This document shows, piece after piece, positions 1 through 6,000 of a stretch of 16,064 bases of DNA; positions within the stretch are counted from its first letter, which is position 1, and the number at the start of each line of letters is the position of its first letter. The DNA is from a virus: the UHGV virus genome UHGV-1966638; one strand, written 5' to 3'. Position numbers: made by a program.

Positions 1-3000
1 ATGTTGCTTTCAGACCTTGCTATCCGCCGCGCGAAGCCAAAAGAGAAAGCCTATACACTCAATGACGGCAACGGGCTTTCGTTACTCATTGAGCCGAACG
101 GTTCGAAGGGCTGGCGATTGCGATACAGGTTTGCAGGCAAGCCCAAAATGTTGTCGCTGGGTGTTTATCCTGAGGTGTCCCTTTCTGATGCCAGGACGGC
201 AAGGGATGAGGCCAAAAGGCTTATCGCTGGTGGAGTTAATCCGAGTGAGGTCAGAAAGGCCCAAAAGCGAGAACAGGCGAACAAATGCGGTAACACCTTT
301 GAGGCGATCGCCCGTGAGTGGTATGAAAAACGCCTGGACCGATGGTCTCCCTCATATGCAGAGGAAATGATAGAGACGTTTGAAAAAGACGTTTTTCCGT
401 ACATTGGAGGTAGGCCCATCGCAGAGATTAAGCCGATGGAATTGCTCGCGGTTCTATCCCGTCTTAATGACCGTGGCGCAACTGAAAAATTGCGTAAGGT
501 TCGCCAGCGATGTGGCGAAGTGTTCCGGTACGCAATAATTACCGGACGCGCTGAATATAACCCCGCTCCTGATCTGGCAAGCGCATTTGCACCACACAAG
601 AAAGAGCATTACGCGTATCTGAAAGTTGATGAGCTACCGGAGTTTTTCCGCGTTTTTAATACGTACACCGGAAGCCAGATCGTCAAGCTGGGTATGCGAT
701 TGTTGATTCTTACAGGACTCCGCCCTGGTGAATTACGGCAGGCAGAGTGGCAGGAGATTGATTTTGATAATCGTCTGTGGGAAGTGCCGAAAGAACGAAT
801 GAAAATGCGCCGTCCTCATTGCGTGCCGCTTTCAGAACAGGCGATTGCTATTCTGGAACAACTGAAACACATGACGGGGCAGTATCCGTTTATTTTCCCT
901 GGTCGAATACAGCACAGTAAACCGATGAGTGAAATGGCGATGAACGTGCTTATTCGTCGTATTGGTTATGCAGGGCGTGTTACTGGTCATGGGTTCCGGC
1001 ACACCATGAGTACGATTTTGCACGAGCAGGGGTATAACTCCGCATGGATAGAAACGCAGCTGGCGCACGTCGATAAAAACTCGATCCGTGGCACATACAA
1101 TCACGCGCAATATCTGGACGGACGGCGGGAGATGCTCCAGTGGTACGCCGACTATATGGACTCACTGGAACAGGGCGGTAACGTGGTGCACGGCAAGTTT
1201 GGTGTATGTGCATAAAAACGACTGGACAAGTATACAGATGTATACTAACGTACACGGAAAGCTACAGCTAACATCCTTACAGAGGGTTTTTCACGCAGTT
1301 ATCCGTCATGTATGGGCGCTCTTTGTAACAACGAAGATTGAGTCTTCTACGCAGCTGAAAAGCTGGATGCTCTTTAACAGCCTTTAGTGCTTTCCTGATG
1401 CAGGAAAGAATGGTGATATATGCACTATTACAAAGCATGTAATGATTCATCCATGAGGCGGTGGAGCGCTGGCAAAGTGCTGTTGATCTTTAACATTGAT
1501 GCGGCGGGATGGTTCGTCCCGCAGTGACCGATAGATTTGCTATCGGGAAACATACAACGATTCAAATATGAATCTACGGCGCTGACAAAGCGCAATTGCT
1601 TTCTTGTCCGCCCACCATGTACTGAAAAAACGCTCTTTAAAACTACTGGACGTCACGCCTAATCGTGTGACCCCGCCGAAAGCGGGAATAGCTCTACCTT
1701 GCTGGAGCATACCAACCAAACAATCTGAATTTATCTTATGCAATACCACAACATGTTTTCATGTTGTGGTTTTTGTCGTGTTCGTAATTTGACGCAAATA
1801 AAACTCTTACTAAGCCACAGGAGGGGATTTCCGCGTCAACATTAAGGAGATTGATAAATGGCTAATAACAATTCATTCATCCGTCTTTCTGAAGTTATGC
1901 GCCGTACTGGTTATGGTCGCGCATGGATTTATCGCCTGATCAGCCTGGGGCGTTTCCCTAAACCGGTAAAAATTGGTCCCCGCTCCGTGGCTTTTATTGA
2001 AAGTGAAGTCGACGAATGGATTAACCAGCGTATTGATGCTTCTCGCAACAACGCCGCGTAATAATCTTTTGGGTGGGGGGTATTCTCCCCCAGCACTAAA
2101 CCTGATCCGATAGCAGGAGTTTTTCAATGAAACGTCCGAATATGCTCGTACAGGGGCAGGGCTTCGTTCAGCCCGAAGAACTGAGCCAACAGTATTTCGC
2201 CGCAATTATTCCGGTAATTTCCGGCAATGAGATTATTGCTGACGGAATAAATAAAAATGCACTCACCGCGCCGGAAGTGTTTCCTTCTGGCGGTGAGCCT
2301 GTAACCACTTCACAGGCTATCGCCCGATTTTTCAGAAAGGATCACGATAAGGTTGTTAACCGGATTGAAAACCTGTGTTGTTCTGCTGAATTTTTAACCC
2401 GCAATTTTCGGCGGGTAAAATTTGAGCATAAGGGGCGCGTATTGAAAGCCTACGAAGTCACCAAAGACGGCTTCGTGTTTTTAACAATGGGATTTACCGG
2501 AAAAAAAGCGGCTGCATTCAAAGAGGCATACATTGCGCAGTTTAACCGCATGGCTAACTGGATAGCAGAGAGATGTGAGGCCAAAGCTGAGATGCGCTCT
2601 ATGGGGGATGCCATGAAGGGATACATTGAGCGCACTGGAGATACTCAACACGGTCATGCTTATAACAACGAATGTACTTTCATTGCGCGCCTTGTATTAG
2701 GGATGCACCCGCCTGTATGGGCCAAAAAAACGGCATCCCATCAAAAAAAGTTCGTGACCATATGACCGCTGATCAACTGGCGTTGCTCGCGTATCTGGAA
2801 AGCCGTAACTGTGCGCTACTGGATATGGATATGCCAACGCCAGAACGTAAAGAACGTCTCACCGAATTAGCCCAACGCTGGCTGGTCCGTCGCCTGGGAG
2901 AACGTGAACATGCCTGACATCCGCAACGCTGCCGCCCTGTACATCGATACTGCGGATAAGTTCGCACAGGTGAGCATCAACCATGCTGATTACATGCGCC

Positions 3001-6000
3001 ATATCGTGAGCCATTTCGCCGCTGAGCGCATGAAACACGTTAAGCATTATCAGAAGGAGGCTTTATCAAATTATCGCGCTGGTGGCCCTGTACGGCGCGA
3101 ATATCCGCATGATGCAGGAATGGCAGGCAAAACAAAGGCGACCACGAAAGGGTCGCCAGTGGAGATAAAGGAAATCAAGCGCATTATCCACAATGCCATA
3201 TCTGAGGCTGGTGGACAATGCTATCAGCCTGGCGGGCGATTTTTGGTTGCTTTTAGCCGCCGTGGGTATTTCCTGAGAAACTCTTCAAGTGCAAATTTTT
3301 TATCTCTTGTATGCGATGCCTTTGACTCGTCGTCACATGTTTTTCCTCGTCTTATCCTGTTTTCAATAAAACGGGAAGCGGCCTTTTTATTCAGCGATGA
3401 ATCAATGGGGCTGCTCCCTGTTTGCTGCTCGACAATGGCATCCATGAGTAGTTGGTGTTGTAGTTGTCGTAAAAATTTCTCATCTTCTGGTGGTAAATCC
3501 ATACTTATTTCCTGTACAGCGGAGCGACGCAGCACCTCACACCACGGCGCTGATGGTTGTTATTCGTTTTATGGAGTCAGAGAAGCAAAAGCGGATCGCT
3601 ATCGGTTTTTAGGCGAGATTAATCGCCGTGGGTATTTGTCCAGAAATGCCTCAAGCGCAAATCGTTTTGGTCTGGGGAGAGGAGAGGGATTAAGCAAAGA
3701 CTCGCGTTCCAGGCGTACTTTTTCGCGCTGTCGCTCAAGTATGGATAATGCGATTTCCTGTAGTTCTTCATTTGTCATTGTCTGTACCCGTAAAGCGGTG
3801 CGCTGTAGTACCTCATATCACAGCGCAGGTATTTTTTATGGTTGTAATTTGCGTGATGATTCAGGTCGCTTTGCGACACACTGCATAAACATAAATAACG
3901 TGATGTTATTATGTGCTTTCAAAGAAAACGCAGGTATTTTTCGCACAAACTTCTCTCGCAACACATCCGACCACTTAAGCAAAAAAGCGGCATATACTGA
4001 GGCTATCCCTTATAAAACGGGGATCGGGATTACCACCCCGCTGGAGTTAGAGGCGATACACGACGCGCCAGCGTCTTTTTTTGTATCGGCGCACACGCAC
4101 ACCTCAACAATGGTGGGCTGTATGGGGCCGACTTCGGTCGGGCTGGTTTCCTCTAACGCCAGTTGTGGTAACCCTGTACAGTCCACCGCCAGCGAGCTTA
4201 CCACCTCCGGCGGTGGGTATAATCCCAAAGTCAGAGGAGCCTTTCACATGGCTGTATCAGCACGCCCTTACTTTGTCTGGCGCTTTATGCAGTGCCTGAC
4301 AGGTAGCATTGCAATATTCACCGTTACCGCTGCCACTGAGCGCGAAGCACGCGCGCAGCTGCCGCACGCACATCTGATTTTTGTCGCCCGTATCCGTCAG
4401 GAGGTGACTCATGCTTAAAACCTTCCGTGTTTTTTCCCGTGCCGTTAATGCACGCGGCTATACCGTTGGCATCACGCAGAACGTGAAGGCCGAAAACGTC
4501 CAGGCTGCAATCAGCACAGTAATTAACAAATCAGCTAAAGCCGGTTTATCCGGCGTAATTATCCACGCCGTTCATGAAATTAAGGGGGTGCAGTAATGCA
4601 GGAAATGACACTGGCAGAAGCCTCACTGAAAGCGCAACAGGTCGAAGTAATCAGCCGCATGATTGAACGCAACCACGAAGAAATAGACGACCATGACCTT
4701 TCTGTTATTGCGGGACTTATCAAACAGCTTTCCAGCAATGTGGCGGTGTGGTTAATGACGGAGGAAGAAAAACGCGGCGAACAATAACGGCAAAAATAAA
4801 CGGGAAATAAAGATTAAGACAACTCCTTCAGGAGATTAACTCAATGACATCAAAAAATTCTGGCTTAACTGCCAGTGGCAAAGCTCAACCTGAATTTATG
4901 CGCGGGGATATTTACCGCGATAAGTACGGCGGCATCGTGACAATTATCAGCGTGAGAGAACGCCGTATCGCCTACCGCCGTGAAGGCTATGACTATGACT
5001 GCGTAATGCCACTGTATCAGTTCGCGCGTGATTTTTCTCTGGTGCAGTCCGTGCCGCGCGGTAAGCCAGCCAGCAACGCAAAAGCAGAGGCGAACATCCG
5101 AAAGATGAAAAACATGATTAACGCATTCAGGGGCAAGAAATGAAAAGCGCACCGAATTTAAAAAAACAGCCGAAAGACAAAATGACCGAAGTCATTATCT
5201 TTGCGGGTAGTGATGCCTGGGCACATGCGAAAGAGTGGAGCGAATGGGCCGGAAAGCATATTGCAGCAGATGATACACCGCCCGTTATTCTTGGACCGAA
5301 ACAACTGGCGAGCCTGGAAGACACGAAAATCATCGATAAAGGGCGCAATTACGTGCGCGTTTATCGTGCTGGTGAAATATCAGAGACAGCACTTTTACAG
5401 ATAGCAACACTGCTTGCGGTGGCGGGTGTAAAGGAGGCACGCTGCTACAGCGGCTTTGTTGACCAGCAGCCGGAGGACTGGACACCGCGCATGGCTGGAC
5501 TGAAGGATGATGCGGAACGCGGCAACTGCCTGGTGATCAATCTTCCGGCAAAGACAAATTTCACCGGAAATTATGATGACGAATTAAAACCCCGCGTTGA
5601 ATGCCGTCCTGATGGCGTTTACTGGGTGACGCCAAAGGTTGATAAGCAATCTGGCGAAATTATCCGTCCGTTCGAATGGCTGTGTTCTTCCGTTGAATTA
5701 CTCGGTTCAGGTGTCATTGGTAACGAGCATTACCGCGTGATGCGCTGGACAGATTCGACAACAAATCGGCTTGTCACTATGGCTGTGCCTTGCTGCGGAA
5801 TAGGCGACACTGACGGCTGGCGATTACTGAAAGCCAACGGGCTTAAAGTCACGACAAACGGAAAACACAGGATCCCCCTGGCTGACTGGATGCAGTTAGG
5901 CGGACAGCATGAGGAATGGCACTTAAGCCCGAAGGCTGGCTGGCATTTTGGCGCGTACATCATGCCGGACGGTACGGTTATCGGCGAATCTGACAAGCCC

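Follow-up and report, generated by a model that had tools for sequence, protein, structure and literature searches.

In the 16,064-nucleotide virus genome UHGV-1966638 (the window, by which we mean the whole stretch of DNA analyzed), one reading frame of the + strand runs for 1.5 kb without a stop codon. The element that carries it is a P4-like Escherichia coli satellite, an island of the Gram-negative phage-inducible chromosomal island (GN-PICI) type. We found that the frame has a composite anatomy, and we have hardly any doubt on this point: a leftward operon with its terminator, an immunity module, and an icd gene all lie inside one open frame. On balance, we read the 1.5-kb frame as an open, probably translated bridge that leads from the upstream alpA/Rha operon to the replication genes, and not as one protein gene. 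With considerable confidence, we also conclude that the openness of the frame is selected.

The open reading frame (ORF) 2904..4418 (+) has 504 codons from its GTG start, with an ATG at 2910, and the open span from stop to stop is 2871–4418, so the stop-free frame reported in a preliminary description of this DNA is borne out. A Shine-Dalgarno (SD)-like GGAG (2897–2900) lies ahead of the ATG, which overlaps the stop of the 3′ part of the Rha-family gene in ATGCCTGA (ATGccTGA, 2910–2917); the coupling to the Rha-like stop proposed in that description is thus present at the level of sequence. The frame ends in a similar way, with ATGctTAA at 4411–4418, which includes the start of the next ORF. 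Across the span of the long frame, the remaining frames contain 18 and 31 stops on the + strand and 23, 16, and 20 on the − strand, as against none in the long frame, and the longest open run in any frame of 300 dinucleotide shuffles was 257 codons, compared with the 504 found. Shuffling of the spacers only, that is, of the 871 nt of the long frame outside the minus-strand genes, gave an expectation of 11.3 stops and a probability of about 1e-5 that there would be none. The identical 504-codon frame is found in three independent complete genomes at 99.8–99.9% identity.

PGAP annotates the long ORF as a 502-residue “Icd-like protein” (WP_001625862.1). All of its family matches in Pfam, NCBIfam, and PHROG are confined to the last 150 codons, where the RNA module and icd lie, and the same three collections revealed no recognizable separate + strand genes in 2910–3990. 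The + translation of 3222–3990 consists of 17% Ser, 11% Arg, and 6% Cys. When the window was compared with close and distant homologues, substitutions at codon positions 1, 2, and 3 of the + frame numbered 10, 10, 12; 6, 8, 8; and 19, 17, 13 in 2910–3223; in 3503–3598 they numbered 15, 10, 8, and in 3779–3990 they numbered 20, 12, 18. The spacer counts are flat over the codon positions, and the indels in spacers between intact loci measure 12, 51, and 78 nt. The first ~105 codons, which had been thought to look protein-like, show no third-position bias, and they contain the terminator and 3′ untranslated region of the leftward operon. Outside icd, the long + frame is without protein-level constraint.

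Upstream of the immunity module, the frame runs for ~1.1 kb antisense through the leftward operon and its terminator. In the window this operon contains two paralogous genes of a family that we refer to as KYPRRL; in other islands such genes often have a ribbon-helix-helix (RHH) partner of the DUF3950 / YlcI-YnfO type. The + frame and the frames of the small genes share the wobble position, and therefore third-position periodicity fits either strand and cannot separate them. We used instead the ratio of nonsynonymous to synonymous substitution (dN/dS), the BLOSUM scores of replacements, and the counts of changes at positions 1 and 2. Across six independent pairs, dN/dS was 0.43 in the small-gene frame and 0.54 in the long + frame. 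The mean BLOSUM62 score of replacements was −0.36 in the small-gene frame versus −1.17 in the long + frame for KYPRRL, and +0.14 versus −0.87 for the RHH genes of related islands, in which position 2 also changed less than position 1 (33 versus 50 changes, p = 0.04). The AT skew is −0.2 to −0.33 at 3200–3900, whereas it is positive in true + genes.

Purifying selection at the amino-acid level was therefore not found on both strands; only the small-gene strand shows it. We conclude that amino-acid-level selection acts on the leftward genes, and that the + frame is kept open but is unconstrained as a protein. The proposal of sense/antisense overlapping genes is right in that the minus-strand genes are under amino-acid selection and the + frame is kept open, but the + frame lacks the protein constraint that two overlapping genes would have. 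The opposite account, with coding constraint in a single frame and the repeats as ordinary gene duplication, is correct about the repeats, but it leaves a stop-free frame that still needs explanation.

Equivalent frames are present in other, related islands whose content differs. The number of open codons is 574 in locus L002, 558 in L003 (which has a different C4 and Icd), 518 in L009 (four antisense ORFs, three of which are KYPRRL/RHH-family genes), 489 in L010, 287 in L006, 372 in L011 (C4 not detected), 557 in L013, 299 in both L015 and L020, 341 in L016, and 348 in L021. Such a frame usually spans the distance from the stop of the upstream gene to the start of the next gene, and in the ten loci tested the other frames contain 4 to 48 stops each and the open frame none. 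An 8-nt overlap of the ATGnnTRA type occurs in the window, L009, L010, and L020, and in L020 the frame extends from the AntA stop to the primase ATG (ATGA) without icd.

In spacer-only shuffles the probability of no stop, which is 1e-5 for the window, was 2e-4, 2e-7, 4e-4, 2e-3, 1e-2, and 4e-7 for further loci. Synonymous-codon resampling of six antisense genes gave probabilities of 0.07–0.35 each, and all of the antisense genes tested share one phase with respect to the open frame. Paralogues and orthologues differ at synonymous sites by dS 0.5 to >2, yet no stop has been gained in intact islands, and non-homologous parts (RHH genes, spacers, and the part labeled segment A) are stop-free too. 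In contrast, the frame is broken in orphan family genes outside islands (L018 and L019) and in decayed remnants of O157 islands (L004 and L005), which points to selection for translatability and not for a protein.

The preliminary description had also suggested RNA-based immunity like that of P4, with a small RNA at 3500–3600. The system was correctly named but lies elsewhere: the Rfam C4 model (RF01695) matches 4106–4193 over its full length with 77.7 bits (cut-off 45), and C4 4150–4171 is complementary to target boxes at 4030–4053 and 4198–4239. The minimum-free-energy fold of the RNA agrees with the C4 fold (z = −4.9). Pairing of the C4 loop region with 4025–4073 is predicted at −44 kcal/mol, a value that none of 200 shuffles reached, and its pairing with 4197–4262, which includes the icd SD sequence, was reached by 5 of 200. 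Within the latter region, GTCAGAGGAG covers the icd SD sequence, 9 nt before the ATG at 4248, and pairs with the C4 loop UUUCCUCU. The alignment of the window with P4, L008, and L009 keeps one order from a conserved −10 (TATACT in the window, TATAGT in P4) through to the start of icd/kil, and in it the a box covaries at its three sites in four variants: a1, a2, and a′ are TTACCAC, GTGGTAA, and TTACCAC in the window; TTGGCCT, AGGCCAA, and TTGGCCT in L008; GTGAGAA, TTCTCAC, and GTGAGAA in P4; and GTAGGAA, TTCCTAC, and GTAGGAA in L009. At a permissive Rfam threshold, the leader at 4005–4081 matches isrK (RF01394) with 48.3 bits, below the gathering cut-off of 50, and a weak c4-a1b1 match appears too; the homologous leaders of P4 (60.8 bits) and L008 (52.1 bits) pass the cut-off. 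C4 pairing with 3503–3598 or 3779–3984 was not significant, and for segments A, C, and E and for the leaders on the minus strand it was no better than in shuffles, so we reject the motif-based P4 analogy for 3250–3840.

The last 56 codons of the frame constitute an icd/kil-type gene (NCBIfam NF033153, Icd-like; amino acids 9–51 of the 56-residue product, 1.9e-14, 53.4 bits, cut-off 25), with the Phage_ASH (P4 eta) region occupying the ~90 codons before it. The Pfam family Phage_ASH (PF10554) matches amino acids 364–450 of the window ORF (2e-7, 31.9 bits, cut-off 26) and amino acids 37–161 of P4 eta (4.5e-23), and the long ORF is therefore an eta homologue. Because the family covers RNA elements in both ORFs, we take “Ash” to represent translation across RNA elements; its conservation (3994–4253 in the window; 8168–8812 in P4, locus L007) probably reflects the RNA and not a protein.

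Several loci carry variants of this module. Two tandem C4–icd modules are present in L002 (4120–4207 and 4582–4670), L003 (4280–4367 and 4760–4848), and L009 (4979–5066 and 5460–5547). The a/b specificity boxes of the upstream L009 module are unlike those of the window, P4, and L008, suggesting that immunity specificities are stacked there. An icd-like gene with a longer N terminus (MRNHxTHPQGRDS..) is found in L010 (~4409–4560), L011 (reverse complement, 3981–4392), and L016 (reverse complement, 664–1066). No C4 RNA precedes icd in L010 or L016 at the Rfam gathering threshold, and no known RNA precedes it in L011 even at a permissive threshold (E ≤ 1); the long open frame is kept in all three despite this.

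A precedent exists in P4. A constitutive promoter inside eta produces a transcript that is quickly terminated by CI/seqA pairing and yields the CI RNA (PMC10111431, citing Forti et al., 1999). Only transcripts from the upstream late promoter give full-length eta, whose translation is coupled to that of the alpA homologue; this translation keeps transcription from terminating and thereby lets it reach the downstream genes (PMC10111431). By analogy, in the quiescent state the internal promoter of the window would make C4 RNA, which would pair with a1/b1 and a′/b′, block icd translation, and cause early termination. Once the upstream promoter was active, ribosomes arriving by coupling from the preceding gene would translate the whole frame. 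They would shield the RNA from Rho, which otherwise would suppress untranslated antisense transcripts, and would override C4 pairing and the hairpins, allowing transcription to reach the replication genes. The rightward read-through would simultaneously interfere with the leftward genes. We give an even chance to the broader proposition that P4-like E. coli satellites maintain “bridge ORFs” of 300–570 codons, selected only for the absence of stops and for frame, over one to four leftward genes and coupled on both sides. If this is true, ribosome transit, and not the polypeptide, is the selected function, and staying open constrains synonymous codon choice and the phase of insertions in the opposite-strand genes.

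Several observations weigh against this interpretation. The translation and Rho dependence of the bridge ORF would follow from the P4 analogy, and a scan of 2700–4700 found no sigma-70 consensus promoter. In KYPRRL, the counts of changes at positions 1 and 2 (91 versus 85) do not tell the strands apart. Coupling is not uniform: in L011, L013, and L015 the frame starts 18–53 nt after alpA with no overlap (53 nt in L011 and L015), and in L013 a gap of 174 nt separates the end of the frame from the next gene. In the window itself Rha is frameshifted, so this copy may have lost its upstream coupling. Because of homologous blocks shared among them, the loci are not fully independent. Finally, the isrK-like terminator has a run of seven T (T7) in the window, L002, L003, and P4 and of eight (T8) in L008 (4306–4313) and L009 (4871–4878). 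In the two T8 loci, the long frame ends inside C4, and a second, overlapping frame, open from a point upstream of the run, extends as far as the icd stop. As the difference shifts the frame, one homopolymer base toggles the eta–icd fusion; the toggle could be phase variation, slippage, or sequencing error.

The frame might be open and translated for a reason other than protection from Rho, a possibility that we consider unlikely. Translation could produce an N-terminally extended Icd/Kil that is masked or differently timed, could melt C4:target duplexes or leader and terminator hairpins, or could silence the leftward genes by head-on transcription and translation. The frame is in phase with icd in the window, L002, L003, L010, L011, and L016; on the + strand it crosses the isrK-like terminator and T-run (4062–4082) and the reverse complements of the KYPRRL leader hairpins; and it is antisense to the leftward operon, all of which would suit one or another of these options. 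However, the L020 frame ends at the primase start without icd, and the frames of L006, L013, and L015 stop before the next gene, indicating that Icd fusion is not the general reason, and the G.U pairs of the leader hairpins work only on minus-strand RNA. It is highly improbable that the open frame reflects chance or inheritance, with one stop-free ancestral cassette duplicated, spread, and called as an ORF. The KYPRRL cassettes are paralogous, several loci share blocks of 90–97% identity, and an antisense frame that shares the wobble position is the one with the fewest expected stops; but paralogues and orthologues have diverged extensively without gaining a stop in intact islands, parts that are not homologous are equally free of stops, copies outside islands have gained them, and the ends of the frame sit on the stops and starts of neighboring genes.

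We think it highly improbable that the long ORF encodes a real multi-domain “Bro-network / Icd-like” protein and that the minus-strand ORFs are its shadows. The PGAP call, the Pfam, NCBIfam, and PHROG matches to its C-terminal third, and a wobble position that makes periodicity fit either strand are what such a protein would predict. The matches, though, are confined to the RNA module and icd; the spacers lack codon-position bias; the translation of 3222–3990 has the Ser-, Arg-, and Cys-rich composition given above; replacements are fewer and more conservative in the small-gene frames; and the AT skew is reversed in 3200–3900. Furthermore, the small genes are equipped with an SD/ATG, a leader, and a terminator of their own, and the PGAP annotations of L006, L009, and L010 themselves include such minus-strand genes. 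A sequencing or assembly frameshift (a homopolymer error) that fused separate + genes is barely credible. Rha is split at A7 runs, and the T7/T8 run at 4076–4082 changes the frame between strains, but the same 504-codon frame recurs in the three complete genomes, equivalent frames exist in many other assemblies, and no separate + genes are recognizable in 2910–3990.

Table 1. Features in and around the long open frame of the window
Feature	Position	Strand	Basis or remarks
Rha-family gene, 3′ part (frameshifted)	2672..2917	+	TGA 2915–2917 overlaps long-ORF ATG; junction gaacATGccTGA
Bridge ORF (eta homologue)	2910..4418	+	ATG 2910, TAA 4416–4418, in frame with icd
Intrinsic terminator of leftward small-gene operon	3127..3157	−	GGCGACC..GGTCGCC and T-run
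KYPRRL-family gene, paralogue 1, 92 aa	3224..3502	−	ATG 3502; ORF call, profile, selection measures
5′-leader hairpin, paralogue 1	3524..3550	−	11 bp, loop UGAGG; holds third cgccgtgg
KYPRRL-family gene, paralogue 2, 59 aa	3599..3778	−	ORF call, profile, AlphaFold, selection measures
5′-leader hairpin, paralogue 2	3800..3826	−	Leader alignment
Putative −10 hexamer TATACT of PLE-like promoter	3993..3998	+	Alignment with P4 TATAGT
isrK-like / seqA-type leader	4005..4082	+	a1 4030–4036, b1 4041–4053, hairpin 4062–4075, T7 4076–4082
C4 / P4-CI-type antisense RNA	4106..4193	+	b2 4150–4162, a2 4165–4171
Downstream targets a′ (TTACCAC) and b′ (GTCAGAGGAG)	4198..4239	+	a′ 4198–4204, b′ 4230–4239; pairing, alignment
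icd/kil-like gene, 56 aa	4248..4418	+	3′ in-frame end of long ORF; NF033153
Next ORF, 61 aa, phrog_3672	4411..4596	+	ATG overlaps long-ORF stop (ATGCTTAA)

Both minus-strand small ORFs of the preliminary description exist, but the second lies 11 nt from the position given for it (3610–3789); the first would occupy 3224..3535 if it started at its GTG. Their shared C-terminal motif is real (17 of 24 residues identical, E = 2e-9). A profile built from the two small proteins and their relatives yielded 47 clusters, all of them “hypothetical proteins” from E. coli or Shigella, and an exhaustive profile search of 1.84 billion representatives found only 19 KYPRRL clusters. The proteins have a variable helical N terminus and a conserved C terminus, (K/R)FALE(D/A)F(V/L)(E/D)KYPRRLKATKNRPPG, and the AlphaFold model (predicted local distance difference test score 83) consists of a long helix, a short helix, and a basic tail. 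They have no match in PADLOC, Pfam, NCBIfam, or PHROG, and scans of genome contigs with protein patterns and then with a degenerate DNA pattern were without match. A conserved leader of ~55 nt, which forms an 11-bp hairpin with an SD-like loop (UGAGG), lies ahead of each gene; three of the hairpin pairs show compensatory changes, and the G.U pairs fit the minus-strand RNA only. The stem of the operon's terminator is kept, with a different loop, in L006 (strain A34). We considered a type II toxin-antitoxin pair for the leftward operon and rejected it: the window has two KYPRRL genes without an RHH gene, and PADLOC returned no hits and hence no defense-system support.

What had been described as a diverged tandem repeat reduces to two blocks conserved between the paralogues by gene duplication: one of 65 nt with 71% identity in the part that encodes the C terminus (3237–3301 and 3603–3667) and the ~70-nt leader (3504–3574 and 3780–3849). 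Tandem Repeats Finder reported no array. The motif cgccgtgg does recur, with 4 copies in the window versus 0.46 expected. Those at 3258 and 3624 (+) correspond to the Pro-Arg-Arg codons within KYPRRL, and the one at 3542–3549 (−) forms the 5′ arm of the hairpin in the leader of paralogue 1. We considered whether the leader arm GCGCCGUGG might pair over a distance with the coding sequence CCACGGCG, but dropped the idea because in paralogue 2 the arm has changed and the coding motif has no matching change. An exact 13-mer, CGCAGGTATTTTT, occurs twice (3824–3836 and 3929–3941) at a spacing of 105 nt in the AT-rich region where the leftward genes and the PLE-like promoter diverge; the pair could be an operator or a remnant of a leader duplication. 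The O157:H7 version in L008 (3469–3892 joined to 3832–4731) looks as if an ancestor resembling the window had recombined between its two KYPRRL motif repeats, with loss of the intervening DNA and retention of one hybrid small gene. A decayed homologue of the leftward cassette lies in the O157-type islands L004 (2241–2314) and L005 (1200–1273), ~1.7 kb from the small RNA Esr41 and near iha.

The Rha-family gene is split into 2127..2765 and 2672..2917 by a −1 shift, with two A7 runs in the overlap, and in a near-identical genome PGAP marks the gene as frameshifted. An IS421 insertion and a frameshifted integrase lie close by in that genome, which suggests possible decay of the island. An undetected upstream frameshift had been offered as the cause of the long frame; although Rha is indeed split, the frame recurs behind intact Rha, GIY-YIG, AntA, and AlpA genes in other loci, and an upstream frameshift is not its cause. 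The same last ~14 codons (..QRWLARRMGEHEHA) and the ATGCCTGA junction are common to unrelated Rha, GIY-YIG nuclease, and AntA/AntB genes (window 2875–2917; L003 ~2970–3013; L008 and L009 ~3470–3513), indicating that a boundary of gene-swapping modules lies inside the 3′ ends of the upstream genes. Farther along, the window contains a Dcm-type methylase gene (8776–9915) and, downstream of the replication genes, a phage Q antiterminator gene (12596–12994) and a second tyrosine recombinase gene (531 aa; 13890–15485). The island may be composite.

Earlier work had already established the immunity module, icd, and the eta concept, and PMC10111431 describes the island type and the C4 and isrK matches in “Bro” genes. 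In the literature searched, including the sections of PMC10111431 consulted, we found neither an eta-type frame that crosses an antisense cassette and is selected for openness alone nor the KYPRRL family with its leader. The results correct an annotation, in that a 502-residue “Icd-like protein” hides two real genes and an antisense RNA with its targets, and they assign the Pfam “Ash” domain to translation across such elements. They also provide an unusually clean comparative case of a long bacterial frame that is conserved open but not conserved as a protein, which is relevant to the debate about antisense overlapping genes and to the question of how Rho is overcome by mobile elements. KYPRRL is a narrow, uncharacterized family of small proteins with a conserved structured leader, placed where satellites usually keep their switch genes.

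The arrangement of the window (int, alpA, Bro-type genes such as Rha, AntA, and GIY-YIG, then replication genes) is like the “Bro zone” of Gram-negative PICIs (PMC10111431). That paper already notes C4 and isrK matches inside “Bro” genes and invokes the eta model; the sections consulted treat the long “Bro” ORFs as domain-swapping proteins, and in them we saw neither small genes on the opposite strand nor avoidance of stops in the absence of amino-acid constraint mentioned. The leader at 4005–4081 also resembles the IsrK RNA of Salmonella Gifsy-1 (PMC4825925) in its match to the isrK model and in its terminator hairpin and U-run. Unlike Gifsy-1 IsrK, it appears to act as the a1/b1 target of a neighboring C4 RNA, and its isrK score remains below the cut-off.

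P4 (NC_001609) is collinear with the window in its promoter, isrK-like seqA, terminator, C4-family RNA, target over the ribosome-binding site, and killer/division-inhibitor gene. In both elements a long ORF ends, in frame, with the short gene (in P4, the 65-residue kil within the 214 codons of eta, 8168..8812), the P4 eta ORF adjoins an AlpA-family gene, and both long ORFs match Phage_ASH. They differ in that eta has 214 codons and no known opposite-strand genes, whereas the window frame has 504 codons, of which an extra ~360 run antisense through two real genes and a terminator, and starts behind Rha and not behind vis/alpA. The immI region of P1 and P7 was reportedly described by Citron and Schuster, in 1990, as a c4 antisense RNA followed by icd and ant. 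It shares with the window a C4 RNA (RF01695), two boxes that pair with a′/b′ before icd, a b′ that covers the icd ribosome-binding site, and the same icd family. In the window, no ant gene follows; small ORFs, DUF4222, and a DUF927 primase lie downstream, and P1 and P7 are plasmid prophages whereas the window is a satellite island.

The proposed protection from Rho also has counterparts. Suppression of antisense transcripts by Rho is said to have been documented by Peters et al. in 2012; Rho removes untranslated antisense RNA of this kind, and the tna leader provides an example of translation-dependent protection from it. As in the proposal made here, a translated RNA in these cases is not terminated by Rho. 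They use short leader peptides, whereas the tract in question here would extend over 0.9–1.7 kb, antisense to genes.

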